This document shows positions 15,970-50,323 of a DNA stretch of 64,000 nt, piece after piece (positions within the stretch are counted from its first letter, which is position 1; each line of letters starts with the position of its first letter). The notes under the pieces were generated by a model, which did no database searches, was not told where the DNA came from, and saw only the letters and a list, made by a program, of their open reading frames with translations. The translations under genes and the position numbers were made by a program. Source of the stretch: a virus. The stretch lies in the IMG/VR virus record IMGVR_UViG_3300025030_000090, positions 4,754 through 68,753 of that record. The stretch is one strand, 5' to 3'.

Positions 15970-16118
15970 GGCCTAATCTTCTTCATCGCCGCTTCCAGGA
16001 GCCTGACCAGATGCCGTAATTCCCTCTCCAACCTGGTCGCGGGCTGGTCGTCTCACCCTATCCTCCTTTCACCTATCCGGAAATTCCGGATAACTGGCTC
16101 CCCCACTGTTTTTTCTGA

Positions 16119-27650: not shown

Positions 27651-29354
27651 TCAATACTCCTTTATCATGCTCTTGAATCTCTCCAAAGCGGTTTGGGTCT
27701 GTTCTCCTTCTTGGATGTTTTTTGTAGTGGCAAGATTCAAATTATTCTTGCTGGAGATAATCTTCAAATCTGGCATTTGTTGTCTGAAAATATCCCCCTC
27801 TACAGTAATTATATATACCCCATCATCATTTTTAATGGTCAAATCACCATCATCATGTTCTCTGAGAATTTTATGTCCTTTGAAAGATCTCAAAGCAACT
27901 TGTTGTTTTATTGTGGGATCTTTCTTCAGTCCCTTTTTGTCATCTTCAGAAAGCTCTATTGCGCCAGCGTCAATCGGCTCCAAAGAAAGAGAAAATAGTG
28001 GAATAAAGTTTTCTTTCGGCCCGAAAGGATCATATATGAATTTCGCTTTCTTCAGCAATTTTGGATTCTCTAAAAGAAGCTTTTGTGTTATTCTAGTTTT
28101 TATTGCCTTTCCAAGGAAGGAATTTTTTGAGGCTCTAATAATGATACTGGGATAATCTCCAGTTCTCACTAATGAAACAGTGTAATCAGAAATTCGCATT
28201 GGGTTATCAAGAACATGTTGAATTTGTTCTAATTGATAGGACTCCAATTCTTTTTCGTCGGAGTAAGGTTTTTCATCAAAATGAATTTCTGTGTTTACTT
28301 GAGTATCTTCTCCAGTTATTACGGGACTTCTTTTAGGCGCTATAGGATCGTCTTCGGATTTAATAATGAAGAAGTTGGATTTTTGATTGACTGGTGACTC
28401 GCAGTATGTCGCTTCGCACAAATCTAGTCCATTCACTACCATCACTTGTCTACCCTGCATGTTTTTGTATTCTTTCTTGGTAGCAGTTCCTGCGATAGAA
28501 TAAGATTTTATGGTTCCTTTTTCTATTTCTTTTCGCATTCTTTTCGCAATTTCTATGTCTGGTCGTACTTCACTAATCATAAAGAGTCCCTTTTCATCTA
28601 CCCCAGACTTGAATGTTTCTCCATCTTTGTTGATATATGATCTTAATAACCAACCACATTGGATGCTAGAATGACTCAATTGGTTATTGCGTGTTCTGAA
28701 TGATTTCACAAACCTTCCGAAAGCATCTTCGAGAGCTTCTGTGGTGATAAGATGATTTTCTTTGTCAACCATTTCAACACTGGCATAGCCCGCAACTACG
28801 AGAGGTTCTTGTTCTCTTCCTCGTTTTTTCCAATAGTTTTGATATTTTTTGTCTTTTGTATAACGATACAGAGTCAAAAGTTCTGCATCCGAAACTAATT
28901 CTGCACCGCCAGCTTTCTGCTCGGCATCATATAGAGCTTTGTATTCTTGTATTGCATCACCAATATCTGATGCTTTGGTAATTCCCACCATTTTGCTGAT
29001 TATGGTAAATTCTGGGTCTGAAAGAATTGGTGTGAAAAAATTCCTGTTGACCTTTCTTACTTCATTGATTGCTTCCATTCCGGAAAATTCGTCAAGTTTC
29101 TTTTTAATGTCTGCATAATTGGCAAGAGGATATAACTTTTTAGCAAAGTTTTCATCAATGTGCATCTGATGAGCACAGTTATCAATAGCTATAGCTTTCT
29201 CAAGCTGAGAAGAAACATCACAAACAGCCTTTGCGATATGTGTATTTTGTACACGAGGAATTAAATCCATATGCAAAGAGTCTATTTCTTCCGAAGAAGC
29301 CTCTTGTTTTACCAGACGTTCATATACAGACAAAAAGTGATTTATGTTCATCAT
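27651..29354 (-). CDS. HK97-type prohead protease with N- and C-terminal extensions
   Basis: VVAGYASVEMVDKENHLI, QLSHS (His), DEKGLF, KSYSIAG (Ser), EATYCESPVN. Confidence 0.82.
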   Translation of the reverse strand: MMNINHFLSVYERLVKQEASSEEIDSLHMDLIPRVQNTHIAKAVCDVSSQLEKAIAIDNCAHQMHIDENFAKKLYPLANYADIKKKLDEFSGMEAINEVRKVNRNFFTPILSDPEFTIISKMVGITKASDIGDAIQEYKALYDAEQKAGGAELVSDAELLTLYRYTKDKKYQNYWKKRGREQEPLVVAGYASVEMVDKENHLITTEALEDAFGRFVKSFRTRNNQLSHSSIQCGWLLRSYINKDGETFKSGVDEKGLFMISEVRPDIEIAKRMRKEIEKGTIKSYSIAGTATKKEYKNMQGRQVMVVNGLDLCEATYCESPVNQKSNFFIIKSEDDPIAPKRSPVITGEDTQVNTEIHFDEKPYSDEKELESYQLEQIQHVLDNPMRISDYTVSLVRTGDYPSIIIRASKNSFLGKAIKTRITQKLLLENPKLLKKAKFIYDPFGPKENFIPLFSLSLEPIDAGAIELSEDDKKGLKKDPTIKQQVALRSFKGHKILREHDDGDLTIKNDDGVYIITVEGDIFRQQMPDLKIISSKNNLNLATTKNIQEGEQTQTALERFKSMIKEY

Positions 29355-31394: not shown

Positions 31395-31631
31395 CTAATT
31401 TTTCTGTTTTTTTTCTGCAAGTTTTTTATGCTCTTTTTCAGCTTCTGCTAGAACTTTGTCTTGCTTTTTGTTGTATTCTCCCCAATCAATATCACCGAAT
31501 CTTTTAGGCAAATCTTTGCCTTCAGAAAAGTATTTTTGGTGATTTTTTACAGCTACTGGGTGCTCTGAAAAACCATCATGAAAATGAAATCCTACTTTCA
31601 TTTTTTCTAGAAAATCTTTTATGCAATTCAT
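31395..31631 (-). CDS. small protein consisting mostly of the His-rich tag B
   Basis: IKDFLEKMKVGFHFHDGFSEHPVAVKNHQKYF. Confidence 0.7.
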   Translation of the reverse strand: MNCIKDFLEKMKVGFHFHDGFSEHPVAVKNHQKYFSEGKDLPKRFGDIDWGEYNKKQDKVLAEAEKEHKKLAEKKQKN

Positions 31632-31634
31632 ATT

Positions 31635-33872
31635 TTACACATTTAATGCATCATCAAATTCTGGCATAGATTTTATTGGTGGCTTGTTTTCCTTATCAAA
31701 TTCTTGTGCAAGTCGTAAGATTTCGTCTTTAGAAATGTCTCCAAGTTCTCCAGCATCTCTATCAGCCCTATTGTTTACTATTATATATTCTCTAAACTCG
31801 TTAGAATCATATTTAGGGTTTTGGCGAATGAATTTGTGGTAGAATCCATTGCTGAAGCCTGTGTGTTTTTCATGCAGCGATTTTTGAAACAATTCCAAAG
31901 CGCTTTTCTCTTCATTTTCTTCGGAATCATCTTCTTCTATTTCTTCCCAATCTTCTGGTTCTTCATCATATTGAATAGAATCAAGCCATTGGTTAAATGG
32001 AGTGTTGGATTTTACTAAAGAAGCAAACTGCGGAAACTTTGATGTGAAGATTTCTGGAGAGATATAGCTTGAAAGTGCGACAGAACGAGTGTTACCTAGC
32101 TCTTTTGAAACAATGTCCCCTATTTGGAATCTGAATTTTTTGAATTCTTTCTCGTTTGTAGGGGGTGGTAATTGTTGGATCACCTCATGGGCAATTCTCG
32201 TGCCTAGATGTGTGCGAAAATCTTTAGGAGAAAATTTGTGTCCTGAAATTCCACCCAGGTACTTTCTTACTTCATAGTCATTCACTTTGAACAATGGTTT
32301 TTCTTCATTTTTCTTTTTACGTGCAAGCAAAGCAGCTATTTTTGGGTCTTTGATTTGTTTCTGTATATGAACACCCTTTTTGCCGATGAAATCAAATGAA
32401 ATACTATCACCATTTATTTGAACATGTTTTCCTAATAAAGTAGAAACTCCATACGCTTTTACTTTGGCTAGGGTTTCATCATTGCTACCTATTCTAAACC
32501 CTGTTTTTGAGATAATATACAACACTAGCGCTTCTTCTGATTTTGATACATCTTTGGAAATTCTCTGTTCAATACGAGGAAGAACTTGGGCAAAGGCTTT
32601 CACCCTTTTGAATTTTGCGGCTGTATGCTTCTTAGAATGTTCAGCAGAATACAGATATTGCAATCTTCCTTTTGAGTCTTGTCCAATTGCTTGCAATGGG
32701 GAATTTTTGCTTTTTGCTACAAGAACATTCTGCCAGTTTGGGGGAATTCTAGAACCAGAAGGAGAAATATTTTCACCTCTCTTCTTTTGTCGCATTTCGG
32801 GATAACGATCTTGATACGGATTCACATACACAGTTCTTGTTCTTGGGAAGGTTTTTCCTTCTCTATGGACAGTTTCTTGTATTTGTTTGGGAACTAGGTT
32901 TGTATTATTTGCTTTTTTAATTTCACTAGTTTTTACTTCAATGTTTTCTATCCAGTTAGGGGGGACTCTTCTTGTCATGGCTACGTATGTCCCAAGTAAG
33001 TTATTGGTTGGATGTTTAAGCAAAATGATTTGTTCAACACTTAACTTATCGGACCAACCATATGTCATAGAATCAGGCACAAGTTGATTGATATATTGTT
33101 TAGGAACTCTGAATTTAACGATAGTTTTTATCTTAGTATTTACAAAATTGCTTGGTTCTCCTATTGAGGCAAAATTACTTTCTTCAATAAGTCCTCTAGT
33201 TTGTACTGATTCTTTTACATTTCCAGGAGATTCGTGATATAATATTATCCCATTATTAACTTCTGATATACGCCTTAATCGCCCCAAAAATGTTTTTTCA
33301 GCTGCTTCCGGTGTTCTAATATTTTCTGGAAGGCTGTTTATGAAGTTCTGGTCTATTTCATCATCAAATTCTGGTATTTTATAGGTTGTTTTTGAAGGGT
33401 CTTGATTTTTAGATCCCAAAGGTTGTCGGATATTATGTGTAGTAAAATATTTTTGGTGATCTATTACTCGTACTGGGTGTTCTGGAAAGTTATCATGTTT
33501 GTGTTTCCAGGATTCTTTTTTAATTTCTTCATTATTGCGTTGTTGTAAACTTCCAGAGTCTTTCTCCCCGCTATTTTCATCCTCAGCTTTTTCTTCTTCT
33601 CCCTTTTCTCCCATTTTGAATTCTGGTAGTAGTTCTCTGTATCTATCTGTTCCTTCATCATCTTGATCCCATAGTCCTTCTACTCGTATTTGTTGGATAT
33701 TGTCTTCGATAACCTTTTTTGCATCATTGAGTTGCATTTCTTCAGAGACAGAAATTTCGGGTGAAGAAAGTTTCTCATTTATCTCATCATCCATTGCAAT
33801 AAGCTCTTTCAGATATCGTTTTATTGCAATATCAATAGAATGGTAGTTGGCATCAATTTCGGATATAGACAT
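31635..33872 (-). CDS. polyprotein: tag B + putative ART/KptA-like domain + tag A + DNA topoisomerase IB
   Basis: TopIB catalytic set TGFRIG, FIGKKG, KDFRT, LGNT..V...SYI; upstream LYHES..GL..VPPNWI domain. Confidence 0.85.
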   Translation of the reverse strand: MSISEIDANYHSIDIAIKRYLKELIAMDDEINEKLSSPEISVSEEMQLNDAKKVIEDNIQQIRVEGLWDQDDEGTDRYRELLPEFKMGEKGEEEKAEDENSGEKDSGSLQQRNNEEIKKESWKHKHDNFPEHPVRVIDHQKYFTTHNIRQPLGSKNQDPSKTTYKIPEFDDEIDQNFINSLPENIRTPEAAEKTFLGRLRRISEVNNGIILYHESPGNVKESVQTRGLIEESNFASIGEPSNFVNTKIKTIVKFRVPKQYINQLVPDSMTYGWSDKLSVEQIILLKHPTNNLLGTYVAMTRRVPPNWIENIEVKTSEIKKANNTNLVPKQIQETVHREGKTFPRTRTVYVNPYQDRYPEMRQKKRGENISPSGSRIPPNWQNVLVAKSKNSPLQAIGQDSKGRLQYLYSAEHSKKHTAAKFKRVKAFAQVLPRIEQRISKDVSKSEEALVLYIISKTGFRIGSNDETLAKVKAYGVSTLLGKHVQINGDSISFDFIGKKGVHIQKQIKDPKIAALLARKKKNEEKPLFKVNDYEVRKYLGGISGHKFSPKDFRTHLGTRIAHEVIQQLPPPTNEKEFKKFRFQIGDIVSKELGNTRSVALSSYISPEIFTSKFPQFASLVKSNTPFNQWLDSIQYDEEPEDWEEIEEDDSEENEEKSALELFQKSLHEKHTGFSNGFYHKFIRQNPKYDSNEFREYIIVNNRADRDAGELGDISKDEILRLAQEFDKENKPPIKSMPEFDDALNV

Positions 33873-36800
33873 TATTTCTCACCCACAAATAACCCAGGAC
33901 TGCTTGCTCGCAACATTTTCATTTGTGCCATAATATCAAGAAATTTTGCTTGTTCTGTAGGGTTGTCTTCGTACATATATGTATTTACAGTCACATCACC
34001 AGTTCTTGGGGAGCGAGCAATTCTTCCTTGGGCCTGGAGAAGGACACTCGCATCTTGAGGGTTTCCTAAAATATGCAAATGGTCTCCTGTTTGCAAATTG
34101 TAGCCGCTACTAGATTTATTATCTATAAAGATAACCCTCACATCTTTGTTTCTTCTGAATTCTTCTGCTCTTGCAGCCATTTCTTCCCCAGTCATGCTGG
34201 TAGTAGAAGCGGCAAGATTTTTTACTTGACTTTGTTTCAGGCCAAGCTCTTTGATGATGTCATTCACAGAATTTCTTTGAGTCCGACTATCTATAAAAAC
34301 CACATGTTTTTTGTTTGAATCTCTTTGCAAAGCAGTTTTTAGGGCTGTAAGTTTCGAATTGGTAGCGATTGGTCCATCATCAAGATTTTCAGTATGCTCT
34401 TGTTCTATTTCTGTTCTCGCAACTTTAGTAGCATTTTGTCCTAGATTTCTTTCCCAATTTTCAGAACGATGTAGCGGGTGATTAGGATTGCTTCTTACTT
34501 CATTTATGATTTCTTGTCTTCTGGTGGCGATTTTCTCAGCACTTTCTAATTCAATTTCTTTCTGATTTTGGACCTGATAATCTGTTTTTCTAACATTAAC
34601 ATTGTTATGGTTTACTTTCCAAGGAGGGGTAGAAAGTTTATCACCACTAATAAAAGGCCTGATGGTATGAAAGAACATGGAGCTCAATCCCGTGTCTTGC
34701 GCATTTGTCCCGCTGCCAAATCCTGAGTATACTCTTTGGAATGATGCTTTGCTACCAAGAGATTTTGTTTGAGTTGCCCATTTTATCAAATCATGCGCTT
34801 CAAGGGGGATTCTTCTCGCAGGAGTGGCTGTAAGCCCGATTCTATGGTTCACAGGAAGTCGCATTATTCTTTTGCCGTATTCTCCGATGTTTCCTGATTG
34901 TCCTCTTGCTTGAAGCTCTTGTGGCTCATCAACTACAAACCCATGAAATTTTTTGTTCCCCAATTGTTCATTTGTCTGCATCTGGGTGAGCATTTCAGAA
35001 GAACGTGCAGCTTCTCTGTGGGCAATTACATATACAGTTCCTGGTTTGCTATCAAGAAGAATATCATCTACTTTGTCTCTTGCAGTCCCATCTGGGATGT
35101 ATTCTATTTTCAAATTTGTGAACTTTTCTGCCTCTGATTTCCATTGCTCTCCTCTGCCTTTAGGAACAACCACAAGCCCTTTGTAATTAGGATCATCATT
35201 CATTTTATGAGCAAAAAACCCCAAAGCAGTGTTTGTCTTTCCAGCACCCGTGACTCTGGTAATCAACCCACCTCCATTTCCTAGAGGATTTTCTGTTGAA
35301 GGTTTTGTAGTTTCCAGAAGCCAATTTATATCATTTCTTTGTTCAAGACGCCATTTGTATGGTTGAGTTACTCCTGATTCGTCAGTAAATTCTTTCTTCC
35401 ACAAAGGAACGTCAAAATTTGATACAACAAGATTTCCCTTATCATCATATTCTGAACCAGAGGTATCAGTCTTTAGTTTTTCATATTTGTCAGAGATTTC
35501 TTTGTCTTGTTGAGTTTCAGTAATTAATTTTCTAAGAGAATCAAGTCCTACTTTCACAGAAATATTATCTGGGTCAGAGTTGTCTATGGTGTGATGTTTA
35601 TCTGAAAGTTTTAATCTTTCAGCAATTGCTTCTGCATCTTTTTGGTTATTTCCGGCATAAATGTGTATTATGTCATTCTTTGCCGTTTTTAGTTTTTCCA
35701 TTTGGTCGTAAAGTGTAGCAGATGCTTGTAAAGAGCCAATTGCAGCACCTATGTTTCTTTTTTGTTCCAAGAGATTTTTCATTTCCAATGAAGAAATTTT
35801 TATCTTGTCTAGAAGTTCGCCACTTCCTTTTTGTTTTTGGATTTCATTCCATTGATCTTTGAGCATTTTGTGTCTATCAAGGGCTTTTTTTTCAGTTGAT
35901 TGCTGATTTGTAGCATTGAAGTCCCTTAATTGTTCTACTGCTCTGGCATATCCTTCAGTAGATTTTGAATTTTCATGTATTTCATAGGCAACCATAGCCG
36001 TAGCAACTTCAATATTGGAAGCATCAATAAGTCTTTTGACATCTACTGTTTTCCCTAAAAATTGCTGTGCAAGAGAGGCAAGAGCAATAGAAGCTCCGGC
36101 ATTCAAATGGAATTTTAGAGTAGTATCTATTTTCTTGTCATCTCCTATGGCATCCATCAGGCTCTTTTTGTTGTTCCAGTGTTCCGCAGCAACCTCATAA
36201 AGAGCTATAGCAGTATTGTTTCTCAACCACTGGTCATAAGATTGCGTAGTTTTTTCTTCTAATTCCTCTATAGACATATCAGATTCTATAGATACCAGGT
36301 CTTGTCTCAATTGGGCAATAGTAGAAGGGGCAGCATCTACCATAGGAACTTTCTTAATAGCTCCTTTCTTTAATTCTGCTTCTTTTCTTTTGTCCCAATA
36401 TGATTTGACAGAATTGATAGCCTTCTTCAAATCTTCTTCGGATTTCAATTCAAGTTTTTCTATAGGAGCGATTTTTATCTCTGGAGCTTTTTCATCAGGA
36501 TTAGTTGGATTTTCGCCATCTTCAAGGATATTGTCTATTTGTCTGTCCATGTGATTGGCGACAGCACTATCCAATTGATTTTGATTCAAGTCTTTCAGTT
36601 CTTCAATATTCGGCATGGAAAGTTGAACGTCGCCAATTTCTTGAAGATCTTTTGATTCTTCTTGAATTATTTGCTCTGTATTTGCTTCGGAGCCAAGTTG
36701 TGAAAGCCGCTTGCCGATTTTTGCTACTACAAGTTGTCTTTCTCTTTGGACTTTTTCGCCAACTTTTCTATTGGCTGCTACAATTTGTCTTGTGATGGTA

Positions 36801-37351
36801 TCGGTAATTCTTTTTGCTTGCTCTTTGTCTTCTACAATCTTTTCTACGTAGTTCTGAATATCATCTTTTTGTTCTAGAAGCTGCTTTTTATCTACTTTTT
36901 TGATTCCAAGTGCTTCTTTCATTTCTTCTGCAGCTTTTCTGACTTCTACTCTGGACTCTTCTTCTAGTTCTTTTTTGGCTACAATGATAGGTTCATTATA
37001 TTTTTCAGCTTCTTTTGCTGTTTCTTCTAGTTCTACATCTCGCTCTGTTTTCTTTGGAGCACCGCCAAGAACTTGATGCCGACGAGCTTCAACCTCGGGA
37101 TCGAAATGTTGCCCGCCCCCAACTATAGCTAGGAGGTTGTCAGGCCTCTTTTGAATTAAAAGTTTTCTGTGGTGGAGCGGCGACTCAGGATCAGATACTG
37201 TAATCCAAGCTGAATCACCGACAGCAAGCGATTCGGCGTCAAACTTCCCGTCCTTCATAGGTGTGGGAACTGTAGCCTTGTTAAAAGATACAAATTCTTT
37301 AGAATGCTTTTTGCTGCCTAACATTTTCAATAGTTCTAAAAGCTTACTCAT
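33872..37351 (-). CDS. large coiled-coil protein with SF2 (SNF2-like) helicase/ATPase
   Basis: VTGAGKT, VVDEPQE, LTATP, SSGYNLQ, QAQGRIAR. Confidence 0.8.
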   Translation of the reverse strand: MSKLLELLKMLGSKKHSKEFVSFNKATVPTPMKDGKFDAESLAVGDSAWITVSDPESPLHHRKLLIQKRPDNLLAIVGGGQHFDPEVEARRHQVLGGAPKKTERDVELEETAKEAEKYNEPIIVAKKELEEESRVEVRKAAEEMKEALGIKKVDKKQLLEQKDDIQNYVEKIVEDKEQAKRITDTITRQIVAANRKVGEKVQRERQLVVAKIGKRLSQLGSEANTEQIIQEESKDLQEIGDVQLSMPNIEELKDLNQNQLDSAVANHMDRQIDNILEDGENPTNPDEKAPEIKIAPIEKLELKSEEDLKKAINSVKSYWDKRKEAELKKGAIKKVPMVDAAPSTIAQLRQDLVSIESDMSIEELEEKTTQSYDQWLRNNTAIALYEVAAEHWNNKKSLMDAIGDDKKIDTTLKFHLNAGASIALASLAQQFLGKTVDVKRLIDASNIEVATAMVAYEIHENSKSTEGYARAVEQLRDFNATNQQSTEKKALDRHKMLKDQWNEIQKQKGSGELLDKIKISSLEMKNLLEQKRNIGAAIGSLQASATLYDQMEKLKTAKNDIIHIYAGNNQKDAEAIAERLKLSDKHHTIDNSDPDNISVKVGLDSLRKLITETQQDKEISDKYEKLKTDTSGSEYDDKGNLVVSNFDVPLWKKEFTDESGVTQPYKWRLEQRNDINWLLETTKPSTENPLGNGGGLITRVTGAGKTNTALGFFAHKMNDDPNYKGLVVVPKGRGEQWKSEAEKFTNLKIEYIPDGTARDKVDDILLDSKPGTVYVIAHREAARSSEMLTQMQTNEQLGNKKFHGFVVDEPQELQARGQSGNIGEYGKRIMRLPVNHRIGLTATPARRIPLEAHDLIKWATQTKSLGSKASFQRVYSGFGSGTNAQDTGLSSMFFHTIRPFISGDKLSTPPWKVNHNNVNVRKTDYQVQNQKEIELESAEKIATRRQEIINEVRSNPNHPLHRSENWERNLGQNATKVARTEIEQEHTENLDDGPIATNSKLTALKTALQRDSNKKHVVFIDSRTQRNSVNDIIKELGLKQSQVKNLAASTTSMTGEEMAARAEEFRRNKDVRVIFIDNKSSSGYNLQTGDHLHILGNPQDASVLLQAQGRIARSPRTGDVTVNTYMYEDNPTEQAKFLDIMAQMKMLRASSPGLFVGEK

Positions 37352-37818
37352 TAGCGAAATCCGATATCATTTTTCGTATTAGCTCTTCGTTTTTCAAATC
37401 ATGTTCCCAAATAATCAGAGTCCCATATCCACTTTGTTTGAATAAAGAAATTCTTTCCAGGTCTTGATTGATTTCGTCTGCTGATTTCGGAAAACAAGTT
37501 TTGCAATTGTGGAAGTAACAACCATTGAATTCAATTAGTTTCTTCTCACTTTCATTCAAAAAGTCAGGATTCTTTCTATGAATCCAAAACGATCCATCAC
37601 CTACATATTTCCATCCCGAAGTAGAATTCTTAATGATTTCTAACAACTTAATTTCTGCGGAATTTGGATGTATAGAAGCGTTTTTGAGAGCTTTCTCGCA
37701 GCGTATATTTCTTTCTGAATCGCTCAATCTATCCCAACTCTTTTATTTTTCGTTTAGATCTTGGAAATATCGTTTCTCCACACCCACAAGCACAATATTT
37801 TATTTCCATGTTACTCAT
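37344..37818 (-). pseudogene. degenerate Vsr/DUF559-type homing endonuclease
   Basis: PDF..IEFNGCYFH..C..C, LIIWEHDL at 37344-37727; N-terminal CACGCG part (ATG 37818) is out of frame. Confidence 0.65.
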
Positions 37819-37885
37819 ATTCAAATCCTAGGAACCCAATTGTCTGGTTCGGGAAGTTTTGGGTCTTGAAAAAAATTCTTTTAGT

Positions 37886-38185
37886 TTATTCATCCTCTAT
37901 TTTCTCTGGATAATCTGCTTTTACATAAGTTCCATAAAGACAAAAATGAAGATTTTCTACAAGTTCTCTTCCGTCTTTCAAGGAAAGTCTCTTTCCTCTA
38001 GATCCATCTTTTTCTATTTTTACCAGCCCACGTTTTAGCATTTCTTCCAACGTTTCTGTGTATTCACCAACAATAGATATCTTATCTGTTTTGCTATCCC
38101 ACTCTACATTAGCGATTTCGCTATCATGGACATTGTATACTTTGGAAATGATTTTCATTGTTGTACCCTGTATCCTATATTCCAA
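37886..38185 (-). CDS. hypothetical protein overlapping the kinase 3' end (possible inhibitor)
   Basis: likely start MKIISKV overlaps the kinase stop. Confidence 0.55.
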   Translation of the reverse strand: MEYRIQGTTMKIISKVYNVHDSEIANVEWDSKTDKISIVGEYTETLEEMLKRGLVKIEKDGSRGKRLSLKDGRELVENLHFCLYGTYVKADYPEKIEDE

Positions 38186-39426
38186 TTAGGCTGTTGTTGG
38201 AGGAGGATGTCTGCCCGATACCGCATAGCTTCTGCTTGCATGCTGGAGATATAATTTCCTAATTTTTTTGCCATCACATCATCACTAATGTTAGAAATAT
38301 CTGACAATTTCTTTCTCCATTTATCTGGTATGCGTAATTTTCTTGCTCTCGCCTTATCATGTATAATTTGATATGAGGCAGTTACATATGGATATTTTGA
38401 GAAACTTCCCCCATTGTCTATTGCTATTATTCTGCCATTTTTTCCTAACAACCAATTTCCATCATGGCGATCGGGATTGTCTATAAGATAATCAAAAAGG
38501 ATAGTATCTATAAGATCTTCATCAGATAATTTGTTTGCTTTTGATGAACTGCCAATATCAGCATCTACAAATTGTTGTATGCTCCCATGTTTTTCGCCTA
38601 TGCTTCGCATAGATGTTGTAGGAACTATATCTAAATTAAGCATCTCTGACAAAAGAAAAGCAGACACTTCATACTTTGGTTCTCCATAAGCTGATTTGTA
38701 TTTGAAAACAGCTTTTCCATCATCTTCCAATTCAACAATTTCTGGGTTGTTAACACCCTTGCCAATTTTTTGTGATTTGGTTACGTTTCTTAAAAGAATC
38801 TCAACTGGGACATAATGTGTTTTTGGAGATTCTTTTGGTTTTTCTTTTTGGGGTTCTGAAGATGATTGCTGAACTGCATGTGTAGCAAAATATTTTATAT
38901 GGTCTATAACTCTAACTGGATGTTTTGGAAAATTATCATGTTTATGTTTCCAGTTCCCTTTTTCTATCAGAGGATTTTCCCCCACAAGTTCAGAAAGAAC
39001 ATCTCCTTCCAGGAGCATCTCTTCTTCTTCGCTTTTTATCATTCTAGAAAGTTCCCAAAAAGTGGAAATTTTCGCAGGAGTAGAAAAAAGGACTTCTGGT
39101 TTTATTAACCAAATGCTATTTCCATCTGTAATTGCTTTTTTGACTTCTATTCTAATTGTATCACCAGCTTCTGCTTTTATATCTGTAGGAGCAGTATACC
39201 CAGCATTCAAAACATGATGCCCATGAATTGCTCCTGATTGCTGCTTTTGAGAAACAATAGAAGTTTTTCCATCACCTAGTTTTTTAGGTCTTGAAGAAGT
39301 TACCCCAGCTTGTTGTCGAACCATTTCTTTTCTATAAAAGGGTCGTCCCATTTTAGGATGAACTAAAACAAGTTTTTGTGTCAAATTAGGATTAGCTTTT
39401 TTCAGGAATTCTTGAAGTTTGCTCAC
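38155..39426 (-). CDS. tag A + tag B + PI3/PI4-kinase-like (HipA/CtkA superfamily) kinase
   Basis: AVFK, EVSAFLLS..L.L..VP.T, GSIQQFV, FDYLIDNPDRHDGNWL, IAIDNG. Confidence 0.85.
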   Translation of the reverse strand: MSKLQEFLKKANPNLTQKLVLVHPKMGRPFYRKEMVRQQAGVTSSRPKKLGDGKTSIVSQKQQSGAIHGHHVLNAGYTAPTDIKAEAGDTIRIEVKKAITDGNSIWLIKPEVLFSTPAKISTFWELSRMIKSEEEEMLLEGDVLSELVGENPLIEKGNWKHKHDNFPKHPVRVIDHIKYFATHAVQQSSSEPQKEKPKESPKTHYVPVEILLRNVTKSQKIGKGVNNPEIVELEDDGKAVFKYKSAYGEPKYEVSAFLLSEMLNLDIVPTTSMRSIGEKHGSIQQFVDADIGSSSKANKLSDEDLIDTILFDYLIDNPDRHDGNWLLGKNGRIIAIDNGGSFSKYPYVTASYQIIHDKARARKLRIPDKWRKKLSDISNISDDVMAKKLGNYISSMQAEAMRYRADILLQQQPNWNIGYRVQQ

Positions 39427-39686
39427 TATCGCTTCAACCCGATTTTATACACGAATTGCCCATCTGGGAGTTCTTTCTTTTCTAGAATCTGAACATTGAT
39501 TCTTTCATCAATATTGACAGTTCTCCAATTTGAATCTTCTTTAGGGGCTTCTTTTTCGAGATTTTCTGGCTGTGAAATATCTTCCATACTTCTATTGTAA
39601 ACCTTTTCTATAGGGGTGCTATCATTTTTGTTTTCTTTTTGCTCCCATTGTATATCTGTTTCTTCCCAAACGAATCTATTTTTCAT
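39426..39686 (-). CDS. small acidic protein after ART (NxFxWExxDI N-terminus)
   Basis: overlaps the ART stop. Confidence 0.6.
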   Translation of the reverse strand: MKNRFVWEETDIQWEQKENKNDSTPIEKVYNRSMEDISQPENLEKEAPKEDSNWRTVNIDERINVQILEKKELPDGQFVYKIGLKR

Positions 39687-40398
39687 TTATCAAAAGCTCC
39701 AATACTATTTGGTCATTTTCTTTAGATACTTTGAATCTACTATTGCGAGGAAGGAGTATTTCTTCTTCTTTCTGTGAAGATGTTCCAGCTGCAAAATCTA
39801 AAGGAATTACTTTTGTTCCTTTTGGTATTTTTATTAATATCAGTTTTCCAAATTTTTGGGCAATATTTGCATTTGATGTGGTTGATAAAAACCCATTATC
39901 CGTAAAAATCCGTCCTATGTTAGCATCAAGATGTTCATATATTTTTGTGTCACTTCTTATCCCTCTGAACAAAAACATATTTTCTGAAGTTAGAGGGACT
40001 TTTTGGAATGCTTTGTCCATTGTTAAGATTTGTTGTTTTAATTCTTCTTCACTTGTAGGACTTCCAGAGATCAGAATACCATTTCTAAGTAGCAAATTGA
40101 TTGGTCTGCTGCCAAATTCTTTATAATTTTGTAGTACTTGTTTTTCATTTGGGCTCAGTAGTTTTTCTATGTCCTCAAAACCTTTTCTTGGCCGAACCCA
40201 TCTAATAGACCAATATGGCTTTTTCTCCCAAGTGCTGGGAATGATTTGTACTTTTTTGGGTACTAATCCTTCTCTTGCTTTTTCTAGAAAATCTTCAAGT
40301 TTTGAAGAGGGGGTAGTTATATACCTCTTTTGTTCCAAACCCCTCTGTTTTGAAGAAAAAGTGATTTTTTCAGATAGGGATTTTTTGATTTTTAGCAA
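39676..40398 (-). CDS. tag A + VIP2/C3-like (R-S-E) ADP-ribosyltransferase
   Basis: IN.LLR, LFRG, FLSTT, KEEEILLPRNSRF. Confidence 0.88.
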   Translation of the reverse strand: MLKIKKSLSEKITFSSKQRGLEQKRYITTPSSKLEDFLEKAREGLVPKKVQIIPSTWEKKPYWSIRWVRPRKGFEDIEKLLSPNEKQVLQNYKEFGSRPINLLLRNGILISGSPTSEEELKQQILTMDKAFQKVPLTSENMFLFRGIRSDTKIYEHLDANIGRIFTDNGFLSTTSNANIAQKFGKLILIKIPKGTKVIPLDFAAGTSSQKEEEILLPRNSRFKVSKENDQIVLELLINEK

Positions 40399-40423
40399 AG
40401 TATCCGTCCTCTAAAACTTTGAA

Positions 40424-43400
40424 TCAATCGTCCATTTGTACCCATTTTGCAGGCTTTGATTCTTTTGCCATAACAAGAAATTCTCTTTCATTTTCGTTAT
40501 ATGAATGTGCGTAATAGAAAGACCAAATATCTTCCCTTTTTGTTTTTATTTGCAACGTTATATTCCCAAAATTTTTTGCCTTATAATAAGAATGAGACCA
40601 GGAAGATAAAGCATCTTGATTTAGAAGCACTGGGACATAAGAGTGAGTTCCGCTGTACCCAACAAGCTTCGGTTTTCTCTTTACTTCATTAAGACTTGTT
40701 CCTCTATATAAAGTGATGAATTCGTCTTCTTCATTCTTTTTCGGAAATGCTTCTGCCAGAATTCTTTGCGTTAAATCATAATGAATTCTAACATATTCAT
40801 CTATCTCTTTTCCGCCTAGTCTGAATCGCATTTCTTTTACTTGTCCTTCCATCTTATCTGTGAATCTTGGATGGGCATATGTTTGTTTTTGAATTATTCT
40901 AGAAACTGCTTCTTTTATAGTATACGCATCCATAGAAGTAGAAGATACTGCCCAACCCTCTTTCAACGTTTCATGTATGAATTCATATGGCGTCCCTTTA
41001 TAGAGTTCATCTACAATTTGCACCATCGTTTGCGAAGGACCTTTATTAGAAGTTAGTTGTCCGATGTATTCTTTGAATTTGTCAGATAGTTTTTCAGGCA
41101 ATTTCCAGGTTCTATGGAATTCATCTATGAATTTTTCCCCAAGAATATTATCTCTGATTAGGCTTCTAATTTCTATTTTTCCTCGTTCACCTGTGCTCCA
41201 ATTTGAAATATTGTGGTTTTTCATGTGTTTCCCAATAAGTTTTCTGACAAACAAATATTGAGCATCTTCATCGCTTGAATGTTTCTCATAAAATTCTTGA
41301 AAAACATTTCCATTACTTCTTGATACAGAATCAAGAAAAGTTTTAGGAGATACTTCTTTTATGTTTTCTAGTATCTCAAGAGTTATCTCTTTGTTTGGTA
41401 TTCTTTTTGAAACTGTTTCTTTTACGAATATATCTCTATCTTTTGTTAATTTTTTCAGGATTCGTATATTTCTTATTTTACCAGCTACAAGTTCTCTGAT
41501 TCTCGCAGAGCTATCATCTGCTAACATTTCCAGAATAGGTTGTAAATCTCTTTCATAAGCCGCCGAAGCTGCCAAAAAACGTTCTGTTTCATTTGGCGAT
41601 TCTACCCATTTGATAAATGTGTCTATAGCTTTGTGTTCTTCTGGGTTAACATATATAGTTCTAGTTCTTCTGAATGGTGGGCCGTCTTTGGGGTGAACTA
41701 TCTCATGTATCTGTTTAGGAATTTTTCCTCTGGTTTCTCTTTTTTCCAGTTCATTGTCAAAGAACTTTCTAATAACTTCCTCAAAATCACCTAAAAACAA
41801 ATCATCAAGTTCTTCTTCTGAAACCCATTTGTAGCTAGAATGCTCCTTGTTTAACTTGATCTCTCCAGAAATTTCCACTTTGTAGAAAAGAACTGGATGT
41901 TCGTCCTTTCCTATCTCTGTTTCCCCAGAAATGTCAAATTCTTCTATGTCTTCTACTTTGCAGTTTATCTCTTCCTGAAGTTCTCTTCGCAGCGCTTCCT
42001 TTGCGTCCTCTTTTTGGTCGATGTGGCCTCCTGGGAGGTCGTATGGAAATTTAGAATTGGTAGGATTATGAAGTAAAAGCAATCTTCCTTCTTCATCCAG
42101 TATCAATGCTTTTGCAGAAATAGGAAGGTTTGCTTTTTCTATTTTGTCCTTTGTTTCTATCTTTCTTGTTTCGGGATTAAAAGTTGCAGCAGAATCCAGT
42201 TGCCAACCTCCGGAACCATCTGGAACTATAAGATTCTTTGGAATTCTGAAAGAATAAACTTGGCTATCTTCTGGGTAATCTACATCCCTGCCTTGAGCAT
42301 AACTTCTATCAGTAGCAAAGAATTTTCCTTTAGGAATTTCTTCTCCAGAAACCCATTTTTCATATTCTTTAGCACTCATGTCTCTATAAACACGAATAAG
42401 TTTTGGTTCTTTTCCTTGGTGTAGAGAAATAAAACTAGGAAAATATCCCACATTGGATTTCCATTTCGAATAATCTGGTTTCCCATAAAGCATTTCATAT
42501 ATTGTTTTGACTTGTCCAAACATGCTTTCTTGAATGTCTTTTCCATTTTCTTCAGCTTCTTCGAATGAGGACAGGTCATCTCCATCCCAAAAATCTACTT
42601 CCCCGTCATCACCTATAGAAATTTGGGCCGAAGAAGTATATTTGGAATTTGGCATCTTTTGATGAATAACCATTCTGATGTCAAAATTATCTTCCATTTT
42701 ATCATAGTCAGGAAAGTCAGAATACATAGGCGGAAGAAGTTCAATCTTCGTCATCAAAAAATCTTCCATTCTGTGAATGTGGGCTTTTAGTTTTTCGAAT
42801 GTTTCTTTTCCGAATTGGTGAAAAAGAACATAATCAATAGCATTTTGTCTGTCTTCTTTTTCCCAAAACTCCCCTATGTCTTTGTTCTTTCTATAGCTGG
42901 CCCAGTCGTTGGTATCATGTCTTTCCATCCCTAGAGAGAACCAGACTTGTCCAGGGGAATAATTTGTAATTGGCTTTCCAAAAATTAGAGTTTCTTCCCA
43001 TTCTGGTTTGTTTTCTATATGGGATTCTTCCGCTTCTTCTTTTGCTTCTTCAGGAGAAACCCATCGAATACCCCAAAATGTTTTTCCTTGCTGATGGATC
43101 TGCACCTTTTTAGGAATAAGGTTTGGATTTGAATCAGATTTTTGAATTTCTTCTTTCTCTTGTATTGCTTTTTCGGGGTGGAAAACTACAAATTCAGCAC
43201 CTCTTTGTATTCCGAATTGTGTTTTTCTGGGTTCATTTGTTAGAATAATTCCATCATATCCTTGATTCTCTAGCTTCTGTCTTATAAGCTTGCTTTTTTG
43301 CTCTAATTTTTCGGTCAAAGAACCTTTGAAATTCGCCAAATCTTTGGAAACTAGCTCATCTATATCTCCAGGAGTTCTTGGGACATAGGGTTTTTGCAGA

Positions 43401-45505
43401 TGCAAATGATGCTGTTGGACATCACCATATCCTTCAGCAATTTGCTTATGGGAAGAAAAATAAGTTCCTTTTCCCCACATTCCTTCATCTACAGGTGTAT
43501 GTTTTCCAGTTCCTCTCCATACAATGCCTTGAAATGGTTTTCCATGTTCGATTCCCTTTGCTTCATGAACATCTACATTATAGGGATTGTCTTGCTTCGG
43601 GAGATTGGAAAAATATTCTTGATGGTGTTCTACGGCAACAGGGTGTTCTTGCCAGCCATCATGCTGATGATATGCAACCCTAGCCTTCTCAAAATCATCC
43701 CCGAAGTATTCTTCTGCTTCTTTCTTTGTAGGTGGCCCTTCAGACCATTTTTTAGAAGCAAGGCCATACTTTAGTTCTCTTTCGGAAACAATGTCATCAT
43801 CAGCTTCTTTTTCTTTTCTAAAGGCATTTCCGTGGGGAGTACAAAAATGGGCTGTGGCCATCGCTTCGGCCCAAAGAAATTCTACTGTGGGTGACATGCT
43901 GCATTTCATGCATTTGCTTCTGCTGTAGGCTTTTGTTAAATCTGACTTTGAAAGATACTCAGAATAGTTATCTTTTACATATTGCAATGCTTGGTCTGGA
44001 GTAGAAAATTCTCCTTCCTCTTGCTTTTCTCTAATCTCTTTTATGACTTTGCCCATCATTTTGCTCGGAGGAAGTCCTATAGAAATAAGATCGTCACCTG
44101 TAACAAGCGGAGGAATTTTGCCTTCAGAAGTCATTACTCCAATCTTGCCTTTAACTTCTTGAAGCTTATCTCTAAACCATGAGCTTTCATTTCTTGAAGC
44201 AGGTTCTGGCTCCCCATCTTCTTTTCGATGTAATCTTCCAGTAGTATCTGCTTCAGAAAAGTCAGCAAGAAGGTTGAGTTTGTCTATTCCATGTTTGTTG
44301 ATTAGTCTTTTGAAGGCAGATTCTGGAACTTTTTGTCTCCAAAAGGCAGTCGGAATGCCATGATTTGCTACTAGGAAAAGAACCCTTTCAACTATTTCTT
44401 CATTATTTGTAAGTCTTGATAGGAATTTTTTAGTTGGATCTATTCCTAATTCTTCATGACCATGTTGAGTGATTTTTCCATCTTCTTCTTTTGTAGCATC
44501 AGGTTTTCCGAAATCGTGTGCAATAGAAGCAAGCATTAAAGCAAGCTTGTCTTTCTCATTATCATATTTTTTGATGATTTCAGCAGACTTGTCCATAACC
44601 ATACGAATATGGTTGTATACAGAACCTTCAAAATGAAAGTCTCCCCGTTGTTTTGTAGTTTTCAGCACGAAAATTTCTGGCCAATATCTCTTCAGCACAT
44701 CCATATCATCAAGAGCTTCTAATCCAATAGACGGCTTTTTTGAACGAAGAAGAAGCTTTTTGAATTCCTCAAAGATTCTTTCAGACGGAAGATGTGACAA
44801 ATCTATTGTAGAAGCTAAATCTACTGTTTCTGGAGCAATAGAAAAACCAAAGCGGGCAGCAAATTGTGCTGCACAATACACCCTCAGTGAATCTTCCTGA
44901 AATGTTTTATCATTTACGTGACGAATAACACCATTTTTTAGATCTTTTATCCCGCCAAAATGATCCAGGATCTTCTTTTTTTCTAGATCGTAATAAATTG
45001 AGTTTATGGAAAAATCACGTCTTTTTGCAGCCGTTTCTGTGTCCAAATAAGGATCTGACTCTACTTCGAAATCGGTGTGTTTCTCCCCTATCTTCTTTTC
45101 TTTTCGAGGCAAGGAAATATCAAAATCGGTTCCTATTTTGAATACACCAAATTGCTTTCCTACTTGTTCACTTTTTCCACCCAGTTCTTCTACTATTTCT
45201 CCAAGTCTTTCTTTTGGAATATCATAAACTTCGATATCAAAATCTTTTACTGCTTTTCCTAGAAGAGCATCCCGCACACTACCACCGACAAGATATGGTG
45301 TTCCATATTTTGTAAGTGTGGATGTTATTCTTTCAAAATCTGGATGTTGAAAAAATAAGGGAGAGGTTTCTTCTTCTGAAGAGACCATGATAACACGATC
45401 TCTCTCAAAAGTAGTTCCTCCTCTGTGAACTACCTCATGTATTTTCTTGGGAACTAAATTGGGGTTAGTCATCTTCTTGTGAAAAATTTCCCTTGTATAA
45501 GACAA
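40424..45505 (-). CDS. polyprotein: CCA-adding/HD tRNA nucleotidyltransferase, two ART-like domains, NUDIX hydrolase and C-terminal R-S-E ART, separated by tags
   Basis: LVGGSVRD/DFDIE/RRDFSIN/EDSLR, IAHDFGK; VWRGTG..GTYFS..YDGI; GGHIDQKEDAKEALRRELQEE; LYRG/LSSWS/NEREFLV; true start likely ATG 45472. Confidence 0.88.
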   Translation of the reverse strand: MSYTREIFHKKMTNPNLVPKKIHEVVHRGGTTFERDRVIMVSSEEETSPLFFQHPDFERITSTLTKYGTPYLVGGSVRDALLGKAVKDFDIEVYDIPKERLGEIVEELGGKSEQVGKQFGVFKIGTDFDISLPRKEKKIGEKHTDFEVESDPYLDTETAAKRRDFSINSIYYDLEKKKILDHFGGIKDLKNGVIRHVNDKTFQEDSLRVYCAAQFAARFGFSIAPETVDLASTIDLSHLPSERIFEEFKKLLLRSKKPSIGLEALDDMDVLKRYWPEIFVLKTTKQRGDFHFEGSVYNHIRMVMDKSAEIIKKYDNEKDKLALMLASIAHDFGKPDATKEEDGKITQHGHEELGIDPTKKFLSRLTNNEEIVERVLFLVANHGIPTAFWRQKVPESAFKRLINKHGIDKLNLLADFSEADTTGRLHRKEDGEPEPASRNESSWFRDKLQEVKGKIGVMTSEGKIPPLVTGDDLISIGLPPSKMMGKVIKEIREKQEEGEFSTPDQALQYVKDNYSEYLSKSDLTKAYSRSKCMKCSMSPTVEFLWAEAMATAHFCTPHGNAFRKEKEADDDIVSERELKYGLASKKWSEGPPTKKEAEEYFGDDFEKARVAYHQHDGWQEHPVAVEHHQEYFSNLPKQDNPYNVDVHEAKGIEHGKPFQGIVWRGTGKHTPVDEGMWGKGTYFSSHKQIAEGYGDVQQHHLHLQKPYVPRTPGDIDELVSKDLANFKGSLTEKLEQKSKLIRQKLENQGYDGIILTNEPRKTQFGIQRGAEFVVFHPEKAIQEKEEIQKSDSNPNLIPKKVQIHQQGKTFWGIRWVSPEEAKEEAEESHIENKPEWEETLIFGKPITNYSPGQVWFSLGMERHDTNDWASYRKNKDIGEFWEKEDRQNAIDYVLFHQFGKETFEKLKAHIHRMEDFLMTKIELLPPMYSDFPDYDKMEDNFDIRMVIHQKMPNSKYTSSAQISIGDDGEVDFWDGDDLSSFEEAEENGKDIQESMFGQVKTIYEMLYGKPDYSKWKSNVGYFPSFISLHQGKEPKLIRVYRDMSAKEYEKWVSGEEIPKGKFFATDRSYAQGRDVDYPEDSQVYSFRIPKNLIVPDGSGGWQLDSAATFNPETRKIETKDKIEKANLPISAKALILDEEGRLLLLHNPTNSKFPYDLPGGHIDQKEDAKEALRRELQEEINCKVEDIEEFDISGETEIGKDEHPVLFYKVEISGEIKLNKEHSSYKWVSEEELDDLFLGDFEEVIRKFFDNELEKRETRGKIPKQIHEIVHPKDGPPFRRTRTIYVNPEEHKAIDTFIKWVESPNETERFLAASAAYERDLQPILEMLADDSSARIRELVAGKIRNIRILKKLTKDRDIFVKETVSKRIPNKEITLEILENIKEVSPKTFLDSVSRSNGNVFQEFYEKHSSDEDAQYLFVRKLIGKHMKNHNISNWSTGERGKIEIRSLIRDNILGEKFIDEFHRTWKLPEKLSDKFKEYIGQLTSNKGPSQTMVQIVDELYKGTPYEFIHETLKEGWAVSSTSMDAYTIKEAVSRIIQKQTYAHPRFTDKMEGQVKEMRFRLGGKEIDEYVRIHYDLTQRILAEAFPKKNEEDEFITLYRGTSLNEVKRKPKLVGYSGTHSYVPVLLNQDALSSWSHSYYKAKNFGNITLQIKTKREDIWSFYYAHSYNENEREFLVMAKESKPAKWVQMDD

Positions 45506-45884: not shown

Positions 45885-46584
45885 TCATTATCCCTGTCCA
45901 CTGATATACAGGCACCCCATTTTGATCTGCTACCCACTTAAAAATCGAATTTCTTGGTATGATCACCTCTTCTTCGTCTGATTCGGTTACAGTATCAGGT
46001 ACATGAAGTGCTGAGGCTCCTTTTGGTATTTTTATTGCAATAGTTTTATAATCGTCAAATTCCAATTCCTGTATCCGACTATTTAGGGATGTAGAAACAA
46101 ATCCTCTGTCTACAAAAGTTCCTTTTGGAAAGCTAACATTTATAGCTCTAAAGCATGTGATACTGAATGGTAGAATACTTTTTGAAATTGCTTTGTCCAT
46201 CACATCAATTTTGTACGCCAATGATCCTATTGTATATGGTGCGGCAGTTAATTTTATATTTTTGTTTCTCAAAGATCTATTTATTTCTTTATACCCGTTT
46301 ATCTGATAGTCATTAATAACAACCTTTTCTTTTTCAAGCAAAGCATTATATGCAATTATCAATTCTTTTTCAATTTGCTTTCTTGTAGATCTTGAATATG
46401 GTAAGGAAAATTTTTCTTTTTCTTCTGGGTTCACCATCACAGTTCTTTCACGAGGAAATACTTTTCCTCCACGATGTACTTCTTCGTGAATCTTTTTGGG
46501 AATGAGATTAGATTTGTTTAATTCCAGAAATTCTTGTAATTTTCCCAATTGGAAATTATCCCCAAATTGTTTTTTGCCAGTCAC
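45877..46584 (-). CDS. tag A + VIP2-like (R-S-E) ADP-ribosyltransferase
   Basis: Y..IN.SLR, CFRA, FVSTS, DEEEVIIPRNS. Confidence 0.86.
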   Translation of the reverse strand: MTGKKQFGDNFQLGKLQEFLELNKSNLIPKKIHEEVHRGGKVFPRERTVMVNPEEKEKFSLPYSRSTRKQIEKELIIAYNALLEKEKVVINDYQINGYKEINRSLRNKNIKLTAAPYTIGSLAYKIDVMDKAISKSILPFSITCFRAINVSFPKGTFVDRGFVSTSLNSRIQELEFDDYKTIAIKIPKGASALHVPDTVTESDEEEVIIPRNSIFKWVADQNGVPVYQWTGIMNE

Positions 46585-47179
46585 TCTCTACAATTTGGTC
46601 TACAATACCATAATCTACTGCTTCTTTCGGAGAAAGCCAAAATTCTCTATCAATGTCTTTGTCAAGCTGTTTTCTATCTCTAGTGATCCCATTATTCATC
46701 AAAATGCCTATATATCTTTCCTCAAGGCGCTCTATTTCTTTTTGCTGTTTCTTGAGCTCTTTTACATCACCTTCTGTTCCGCCAGAGATTAAATGCATCA
46801 TCACCCTGCCATTCGGAATGATAAATCTCTTTCCTTTTTGTCCTGCTGATAGAATGGCCACAGCAGCAGAGCAAGCAAAAAGCCCAACAGTATAAACAGG
46901 AGAGCGAAGCATCTTTATGGTATCGTGGAGAGCAAAGCAGTCATCTAGCTCTCCCCCACCACTGTCTATTATAAGAGTAATAGGCTCATCAGAAATAGTG
47001 TCCAAAGCAAGCATATGGTCTCTGGCAACCCAACTTGCAAACTGATCTTGTCGCATAGGGAAGCCCGTCATTACAGAGTAAAAGAAAATAGTTCTTTTTT
47101 GTTCCAAGAAATATTCATAAATAGAAGCATAGTACTTGTTGTCTTGAGTTCCCTTTGGCCGCTGAATCATCTTCATCAT
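46556..47179 (-). CDS. clpP: ClpP-family protease subunit
   Basis: IDSGGG, ACSAA (Ser), MMH (His), DREFWLSPKEAVDYGIVDQI. Confidence 0.9.
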   Translation of the reverse strand: MMKMIQRPKGTQDNKYYASIYEYFLEQKRTIFFYSVMTGFPMRQDQFASWVARDHMLALDTISDEPITLIIDSGGGELDDCFALHDTIKMLRSPVYTVGLFACSAAVAILSAGQKGKRFIIPNGRVMMHLISGGTEGDVKELKKQQKEIERLEERYIGILMNNGITRDRKQLDKDIDREFWLSPKEAVDYGIVDQIVESDWQKTIWG

Positions 47180-50098: not shown

Positions 50099-50323
50099 TT
50101 AGGACTCTTTTTCTGTTTTCTTTCTAGATGAATGTAACCAATTGGCGTTTTTGTCATCTCCGTCCACATCAATTACAATAGGCTTTTGCAACCTTTCTTT
50201 TAGCAATTGATTAAGTTGGCTAATTTTGCTTTTCTTTTTCTTTTCTTTTGTGCTTTCTGGTCCAAAAGTTGGAGAAAAAGTTGAAGCTCCTGTTCCTAAA
50301 GATTCTTTCTTAATGTTTTTCAT
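50099..50323 (-). CDS. hypothetical protein
   Basis: FSPTFG, DDKNANWL. Confidence 0.55.
   Translation of the reverse strand: MKNIKKESLGTGASTFSPTFGPESTKEKKKKSKISQLNQLLKERLQKPIVIDVDGDDKNANWLHSSRKKTEKES

Follow-up and report, generated by a model that had tools for sequence, protein, structure and literature searches.

How a phage marks, loads and divides the giant many-domain effector proteins encoded among its head genes is the question raised by a 64,000-nucleotide (nt) stretch of viral DNA, called the window here, which comprises bases 4754-68753 of the linear IMG/VR virus record IMGVR_UViG_3300025030_000090 (68,753 b, estimated 78% complete). A short histidine-rich peptide, which we call tag B, recurs there in four proteins. 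To our knowledge, detailed understanding of the recognition, prohead loading and cutting of polyvalent or ejection proteins is limited to T4 and a handful of giant phages. In this study, we find that tag B is an autonomous mini-module placed at the start of effector cassettes in the polyvalent proteins that a small clade of uncultivated tailed phages encodes and that, judged by sequence comparison, it is a previously unannotated and very rare peptide family. As to its role, we lean, somewhat short of calling it probable, towards a metal-binding leader of the cassettes, serving as a signal for capsid loading and processing.

Tag B recurs in four proteins of the window

The consensus of tag B is [KR]x[AG][YFW]HxHD[GNS][FWY]xxHP[VI]xVxxHxxYF. 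A degenerate DNA pattern encoding H-x-H-[DE]-x-[FWY]-x-x-H-P-[VIM]-x-V-x-x-H-x-x-[FWY]-F matches the window exactly 4 times, always on the minus strand, which carries all long open reading frames (ORFs) of the tag-B region, against 0 matches in 100 dinucleotide-preserving shuffles; a six-frame regular-expression search agrees, and the four occurrences listed in a preliminary description of this DNA are thereby confirmed. Each copy is preceded by a junction. The first module (31524..31622, minus strand; core match 31527-31586) consists of the junction helix IKDFLEK and the tag, at residues 4-36 of a 78-amino-acid (aa) protein, with the core at residues 16-36. Module 2 (33441..33530, minus strand; core 33444-33503) joins EEIKKE to the tag at residues 115-144 of a 745-aa protein (core 124-144), and module 3 (38884..38973, minus strand; core 38887-38946) joins PLIEKG to the tag at residues 152-181 of a 423-aa protein (core 161-181). 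The last (43607..43699, minus strand; core 43610-43669) has the junction DDFEKA and occupies residues 603-633 of a 1693-aa polyvalent protein, the core falling at 613-633.

At the DNA level, tag B is the top direct-repeat family of positions 27000-47500, with a length of 86 nt. The likeness noted earlier between the second and third copies holds, with 81% identity over the 86 nt, rising to 83% over the 63-nt core; the 78-aa protein has a copy 63% identical to the reference copy of the family. The 745-aa and 423-aa copies agree in 14 of 28 codons; synonymous changes account for 8 of the others and non-synonymous ones for 6. Their flanks, at 22-46% ungapped identity, are taken as unrelated. Because of these synonymous changes and unrelated flanks, the similarity points to selection on the peptide and not to recent DNA exchange; a DNA or RNA element and a recent gene conversion are ruled out on the same grounds. 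The earlier suggestion that the tag is a recombination point for domain shuffling is likewise not borne out. Shuffling near tags does happen on an evolutionary scale, since orthologues swap tags, as described below; the use of tag DNA as the crossover site is unsupported.

Conservation was read from 71 distinct copies, pooled from the window, the related loci and the 58 proteins found by the profile search described below, with the His of 'HP' taken as position 0. The four histidines, proposed from the outset to be invariant, are nearly so, standing at positions -8, -6, 0 and +7 in 67, 68, 71 and 69 of the 71 copies, and the Asp at -5 is kept in 63. Around them, an aromatic residue at -3, Pro at +1 and Val or Ile at +2 are each found in 69/71, Val at +4 in 71/71, Tyr at +10 in 64/71 and Phe at +11 in 68/71. 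Six weak, degenerate copies (in P0006, P0034, L009 and L010) have partly lost the V-x-V and Y-F portions or are truncated; since they retain H-x-H-D and the next His, the histidines and the aspartate are the most persistent feature of the peptide.

Predicted fold and probable metal binding

Tag B comprises about 25 residues, or about 40 together with the short amphipathic helix that precedes it and often ends in hydrophobic-E-K. AlphaFold2 (AF2) predicts the same topology in two contexts. For the 78-aa protein (20-row alignment) it gives a helix at 2-10, strands at 15-18 and 21-25 and a helix at 31-36, with a predicted local distance difference test (pLDDT) of ~70-74 over the tag; for the internal copy of the 1693-aa protein (48-row alignment) the helix lies at 8-12, the strands at 17-20 and 23-27 and the second helix at 33-38, with core pLDDT values of 85 and 84. 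In both models, strand 1 carries H-x-H, the turn is made by D-G, H-P closes strand 2 and the short helix starts at the fourth His. From this conservation and predicted fold, the four His and the Asp probably bind one metal ion, most plausibly Zn2+.

Classical beta-beta-alpha zinc fingers and knuckles are the nearest point of comparison, having the same size of ~25 residues, a hairpin and helix like those predicted here, and four invariant potential ligands; in tag B, four nearly invariant potential ligands, distributed over the hairpin and the start of the helix, likewise fall within a module of ~25-30 residues. The putative ligand set differs, being all His plus Asp, without Cys and with the spacing H-x-H-D-x5-H-x6-H, and family or fold matches are absent in Pfam, PDB sequences and Foldseek. 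The Foldseek comparison of the two models with the PDB returned no similar structure, the first model reaching E 2.9 at best and the second giving no row at all. The predicted beta-hairpin and helix, in which strand 1 ends in a His-Asp pair, would also suit a minimal catalytic or self-cleaving element, such as a stripped-down His-Me finger or a metal-dependent autoproteolytic site. To this we give almost no credence: HNH and nuclease models of Pfam miss the tag although they match other parts of some hit proteins, the HNH-type matches being whole-protein ones in single relatives, and the peptide is repeated up to 3-4 times per protein as a spacer. Moreover, we know of no His-Me core as short as 25 residues.

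A rare family confined to phage head-gene neighbourhoods

A profile built from the four copies found 58 matches at E <= 1e-3, 11 at E <= 1e-10, among 1.84 billion representative proteins. Five related virus records contain 10 matches to the same profile, each of them within an ORF of 799-3068 aa, and the DNA pattern occurs in 6 stretches on 5 other contigs of IMG/VR. A search with a longer tag protein returned 6 proteins, was dominated by the CCA-nucleotidyltransferase (CCA-NTase) part of one row and is not a census. Only 2 stretches, L014 and L015 (GTDB), were found in 596 Gb of bacterial and archaeal genomes (185,579 species genomes), both on short contigs binned into metagenome-assembled genomes of Woesearchaeota and Nanoarchaeota (DPANN archaea). 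Both contigs clearly belong to the same type of phage, one encoding a portal followed by a tagged giant protein and the other topoisomerase IB (Topo IB), ADP-ribosyltransferase (ART) and NUDIX domains, and their binning could reflect either mis-binning or a hint of the host.

No tag-B match was found in 50,697 deposited phage genomes (INPHARED) by tblastn at E <= 0.1 or by DNA, nor in PDB sequences with the profile at E up to 10. The tag region of all four window proteins has no model in Pfam, its LPD families included, PHROGs or NCBIfam, and the 78-aa protein as a whole belongs to 0 families in these three collections. A full-text literature search for the motif strings yielded unrelated papers only, and the main text of the survey of polyvalent proteins by Iyer et al. 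2017 (PMC5512222), in the part available, mentions no such motif. Rather than occurring broadly elsewhere, which would have spoken against a function tied to the phage head, homologues were found only in phage head-gene neighbourhoods, in 8 of the 8 contexts seen, the tagged genes being located after those for portal and MuF and before those for the prohead proteases.

Effector cassettes and exchange with other tags

What follows tag B differs from protein to protein. The simplest carrier, the 78-aa protein (31395..31631, minus strand), is a tag B module with a K/E-rich tail predicted to be helical; the motif had been described as most of this protein, and it makes up only about one-third, or 36/78 residues with the preceding helix. 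The 78-aa protein occurs in identical form on 10 recorded contigs, and its tail is shared, in part, with P0019 only. We considered the gene as a fragment of the downstream ORFs (85 and 153 aa) and rejected this, those ORFs having no relative among the tag-bearing proteins or loci compared. The 745-aa protein (31635..33872, minus strand) consists of tag B, a domain at residues 146-318, a copy at ~326-348 of another short peptide, called tag A, and a Topo IB domain at 376-600. The 423-aa protein (38155..39426, minus strand) begins with the junction KLQEFLKK and a tag-A-like stretch, followed by tag B and a PI3/PI4-kinase-like domain (Pfam PI3_PI4_kinase, E 2.2e-6 at 28.2 bits, the cut-off being 27.1). 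In the 1693-aa protein (40424..45505, minus strand), the order is tag A, CCA/polyA-polymerase with HD, tag B, ART-PolyVal, tag A, NUDIX, tag A and a C-terminal region in which an R-S-E-like ART signature can be read by eye. This protein is polyvalent both in content, uniting PolyA_pol with HD, ART-PolyVal and NUDIX in one polypeptide, and in position, among genes of a viral record between terminase/portal/MuF and prohead protease.

Tag B had been said to precede ART-like domains twice. For the 1693-aa protein this stands, the domain after tag B matching ART-PolyVal in Pfam at E 4.3e-7 with a score exactly at the 31.2-bit cut-off; for the 745-aa protein it is not verified, residues 146-318 having no family match in Pfam or PHROGs and only a weak structural lead, to RNA 2'-phosphotransferase models (template modelling (TM) score 0.42, below the bar). 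The broader claim, that the tag stands ahead of unrelated effector domains, is borne out by Pfam in the window and in relatives. A scan of 46 matching proteins gave PI3_PI4_kinase in 5, NUDIX and ADPrib_exo_Tox in 4 each, Topoisom_I in 3, PolyA_pol, 2_5_RNA_ligase2, ATLF-like zincin, DRAT and M90 in 2 each, and DUF72, DUF192, ResIII/SNF2 helicase, HNH, GNAT and HipA_2 once each. Giant proteins hold several copies, each ahead of a different domain: a 3060-aa ORF of L006 has three, and a 1743-aa ORF of L007 has four, of which one is canonical, one divergent and two degenerate, placed ahead of CCA-NTase, ART-PolyVal and two zincin domains; elsewhere among the relatives, NUDIX, Topo IB, zincin and GNAT domains occur together in one ORF. 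Past the tag, the next domain begins after ~25-45 residues, where a Pfam match shows it, and the first 30 residues are enriched ~1.7-1.9-fold in proline (0.079 vs 0.046) and glutamine (0.080 vs 0.042) and poor in hydrophobics. The differing neighbours and this linker rule out that the tag is part of a neighbouring enzyme fold.

The closest view of tag exchange comes from a pair of orthologues. The window 1693-aa and L007 1743-aa proteins are 57.6% identical over residues 50-514 and 49-513, respectively (CCA-NTase and HD), and the first is led by tag A (residues 14-40; 45386..45466, minus strand) in the slot that tag B holds in the second (residues 17-41). Similarly, the Topo IB domain is led directly by tag A in the window (32826..32897, minus strand) and by tag B in P0004. 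Because orthologous CCA-NTase proteins carry one or the other at the same N-terminal position, tags A and B are interchangeable, as had been supposed when tag B was first described as a second tag. A third tag, GLVPQSGDWxKPxRWV, is found in equivalent slots of relatives in 9 copies, often after EAKRRG or PPRPG; since tag A, tag B and this third peptide fill equivalent places, they are alternative occupants of one architectural slot. The further junction tags of relatives lie at L005 4576-7395, L006 6411-9968 and 9977-19159, L007 9971-15202 and L015 2-1369. Three copies of tag A contain HExxH, as IHEVVH, IHEIVH and IHEEVH (45386-45466, 41642-41728 and 46435-46506, minus strand), and the copy in the 745-aa protein has QETVH instead. 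As the only HExxH strings of the window head-module proteins lie in tag A, this tag may also bind metal.

Other short motifs accompany these proteins. Relatives carry a further tag, SHNNLRxMNPPSRPP..GAVWN..THRW. The sequence FxPT[FY]G followed by a lysine run is found ~10-20 residues before the junction helix in three phages (window 50099-50323, minus strand; L007 8016-9047; L015 2-1369) and may be another processing or docking site. A GPxGGxYY-type motif preceded by PEGV occurs in a 1756-aa protease-led protein (L022 10183-15453) and in a Topo IB polyvalent protein (L014 858-3524).

The nature of the attached enzymes, which act on DNA, RNA or NAD (Topo IB, CCA-NTase, NUDIX, ART, 2'-5' ligase-like), together with the outline resemblance of the predicted beta-beta-alpha unit and its four His to nucleic-acid-binding zinc fingers, suggests a function after injection. 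The knuckle would then bind nucleic acid or a host protein, taking effectors to a common site in the cell (the incoming DNA, the nucleoid, RNA polymerase or the ribosome) or holding them on the packaged DNA. We regard this as fairly unlikely, given the lack of any zinc-finger family or structure match in Pfam, PDB or Foldseek and the confinement of the family to head-module genes; also, exchange with tag A and with the dissimilar third tag fits a shared role in assembly better than a shared host target.

Junction helix and position of the copies

The helix in front of tag B often reads W/L-[LI]-E-K-[QA]. The statement that tag B follows lysine-ended junctions agrees with the pooled copies, in which K stands at -14 in 34/71 and L or I at -16 in 39/71. 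A similar helix opens other proteins of the effector block, namely KLQEFLKK in the kinase-like protein, KLQEFLELNK and KLEDFLEK in two ARTs and KLLELLKM in the helicase, and the tag-A copies of the window are also preceded by such a helix. We take the N-terminal helices KLQEFLKK, KLEDFLEK and IKDFLEK to resemble the T4 capsid targeting sequence (CTS) in form, and claim no sequence similarity.

Thirty-one of the 71 copies lie at most 30 residues from the predicted N-terminus, preceded by the same helix that precedes the 40 internal ones. This leader orientation, with a flexible linker after the tag, is compatible with a function in ejection, in which the tag, exposed as a new N-terminus after a cut, would enter the portal and tail channel first or would form a metal-dependent lock that unfolds on release. 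That large effectors must pass a narrow channel, as in the case of T4 Alt and the N4 virion RNA polymerase (vRNAP), is described in the available text of PMC5512222 and counts in its favour. Since internal copies could work in this way only after cleavage, we hold an ejection leader to be very unlikely.

The head module and its proteases

In the direction of transcription, the head module begins with the large terminase (54041-55699) and continues with the portal protein (50737-53184, minus strand), at the upstream edge of the effector block. A stand-alone MuF-like minor head protein of 296 aa follows (49205-50095, minus strand), identified with a language-model score of 0.95 and a structural TM of 0.64 to Phage_Mu_F clusters; it had been a capsid-protein candidate, and these two matches mark it as MuF-like instead. 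An Mre11/SbcD-like phosphoesterase separates it from a ClpP-like head maturation protease (46556-47179, minus strand). After this protease, the effector block comprises two ADP-ribosyltransferases, the 1693-aa protein, the kinase-like protein, a 1159-aa helicase, the Topo IB protein and the 78-aa protein. Last in order comes an XkdF/S78-like prohead protease with extensions (567 aa; 27651-29354, minus strand), a candidate processing enzyme or scaffold. As described in the part of Iyer et al. 2017 (PMC5512222) available, polyvalent effectors packaged in the head are normally encoded at such a site, and the tag-bearing polyvalent proteins are presumably virion-associated.

Several features of the window stand apart from the tags. 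The head module has two distinct head-protease candidates, XkdF/S78-like and ClpP-like. An insert in the portal (residues 303-379) matches ribonucleotide-reductase and thymidylate-synthase PHROGs and looks like an intein-type insertion; the L007 portal (1082 aa) likewise looks interrupted, and the ribonucleotide reductase large subunit (window 59730-62696) contains an intein with an HNH endonuclease. NAD salvage genes, for nicotinamide phosphoribosyltransferase and phosphoribosyl pyrophosphate (PRPP) synthetase, lie at window 21503-23996, and the same phage encodes at least 3 ADP-ribosyltransferase domains. The GC content is 0.51 at window 14001-16000, vs ~0.35-0.40 over most of the window.

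Among the five related records with tag B, an XkdF-like protease is present in 5/5, a MuF-like protein in 4/5 and a ClpP-like protease in 1/5, counts that are soft because the records are fragments, 32-94% complete. In a 190-kb record that is 94% complete, all 3 profile matches belong to the same 1743-aa ORF, which has the portal to one side and the ClpP-like and XkdF-like proteases to the other. Two records have the XkdF-like domain at the start of proteins with 1756 and 1210 aa, and in two others the protease has a C-terminal extension with the junction-like sequence 'NEWLEKS'. A complex prediction of the tag-B leader (residues 1-45) with the full XkdF-like protease and Zn scored 0.01 against a mark of 0.32, with controls not run, and counts neither way.

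The constant company of this protease and the placing of the tags exactly between domains in giant ORFs bring up a simpler function, in which helix and tag would be punctuation only, a recognition element or folding insulator for polyprotein processing without a targeting role. The protease would be the XkdF-like or ClpP-like prohead protease, or zincin domains in relatives, with head loading achieved by other means. In agreement with this, relatives' tagged proteins contain HExxH peptidase domains, and the portion of PMC5512222 available proposes that embedded zincin peptidases process polyvalent proteins. The window phage, however, has no zincin domain, its sole HExxH strings being those inside tag A; the 31 N-terminal copies have only a 10-15-residue helix to remove; and a mere cleavage site would not need four invariant His. 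Punctuation without targeting therefore seems to us rather improbable.

Discussion

A number of known systems provide a frame for tag B. In the available portions of the T4 literature (PMC3012670, PMC9026906, PMC5694885), the CTS is a conserved leader of otherwise diverse injected head proteins (IPI-III, Alt) that the prohead protease removes. Tag B shares with it the character of a short conserved leader common to unrelated head-module proteins. The CTS, however, has 10-20 residues, is strictly N-terminal, lacks a His cluster and is cut after Glu, whereas tag B has ~40 residues with its helix, four invariant His and a Lys-ended junction, and is internal in 40/71 copies, which a cut at the junction would be needed to make N-terminal. 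Encapsulin cargo-loading peptides, like the C-terminal targeting tail of the HK97 protease, are also short, dock cargo inside an HK97-fold shell and can be moved between cargos; they differ in not binding metal, in being usually C-terminal and in occurring once per cargo.

In architecture, the tag-bearing proteins are of one kind with the polyvalent and MuF-fused effectors described by Iyer et al. 2017 (PMC5512222), which, in the text available, are likewise many-domain effector polypeptides encoded beside portal and head genes. The domains in common are ART-PolyVal, NTase, NUDIX, 2H-like, zincin and helicase. Classically, the effectors are fused to a MuF or portal domain, whereas here MuF is a separate protein and the effectors carry short tags. 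The two arrangements are not mutually exclusive, since in P0059 (1391 aa), the only such relative, a single polypeptide unites three copies of tag B with CCA-NTase and a Phage_Mu_F domain. As a putative leader of head-packaged effectors, tag B is unusual in its all-His set of potential ligands, its repeated internal use in polyproteins and its interchangeability with other tags.

With these comparisons in mind, the reading that we favour, a metal-binding leader for capsid loading and processing, can be set out as a sequence of events. The four His and the Asp would chelate one metal ion, most likely Zn2+, allowing so short a peptide to fold. Helix and knuckle together would dock each effector to the assembling prohead, through the scaffold or protease, the MuF-like protein or portal, or the interior of the shell. 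The conserved XkdF-like prohead protease would then cut the polyproteins at the lysine-ended junction into single effectors, and these would be ejected with the DNA.

Several points weigh against this scheme. We infer each of its parts, metal binding from conservation and the predicted fold, packaging from context, and cleavage as well. The AF2 fold was read as topology and pLDDT, and no sequence or structure match to a known zinc finger or targeting peptide was found in Pfam, PDB or Foldseek. The junction is loosely conserved, fewer than half of the copies having K at -14, and the many internal copies are a departure from the capsid targeting sequences of T4. A major capsid protein, the most obvious receptor, was not found in the window by PHROGs or Pfam scans of ~30 ORFs, nor was one identified in the related loci, and the fragmentary state of the five related records softens the co-occurrence with head proteases.

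A more doubtful extension of the scheme, which we put forward as a possibility, is that tags A and B and at least one further tag are interchangeable, partly metal-dependent leaders that form, with the junction, a 'punctuation and address' code. With such a code, phages of this clade could bring any effector cassette into the capsid without fusion to MuF and release the cassettes from polyproteins as separate injected enzymes; they would then possess a natural, portable cargo-loading system for tailed-phage capsids.

All together, the clade as a whole appears to label each of its effector cassettes with a short peptide drawn from a small exchangeable set. The descriptive gain alone is a protein family that had no annotation and a working rule by which giant ORFs can be divided into cassettes. 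If the tags are loading or processing signals, they are defined handles of 25-40 residues that could be reused for packaging foreign proteins.

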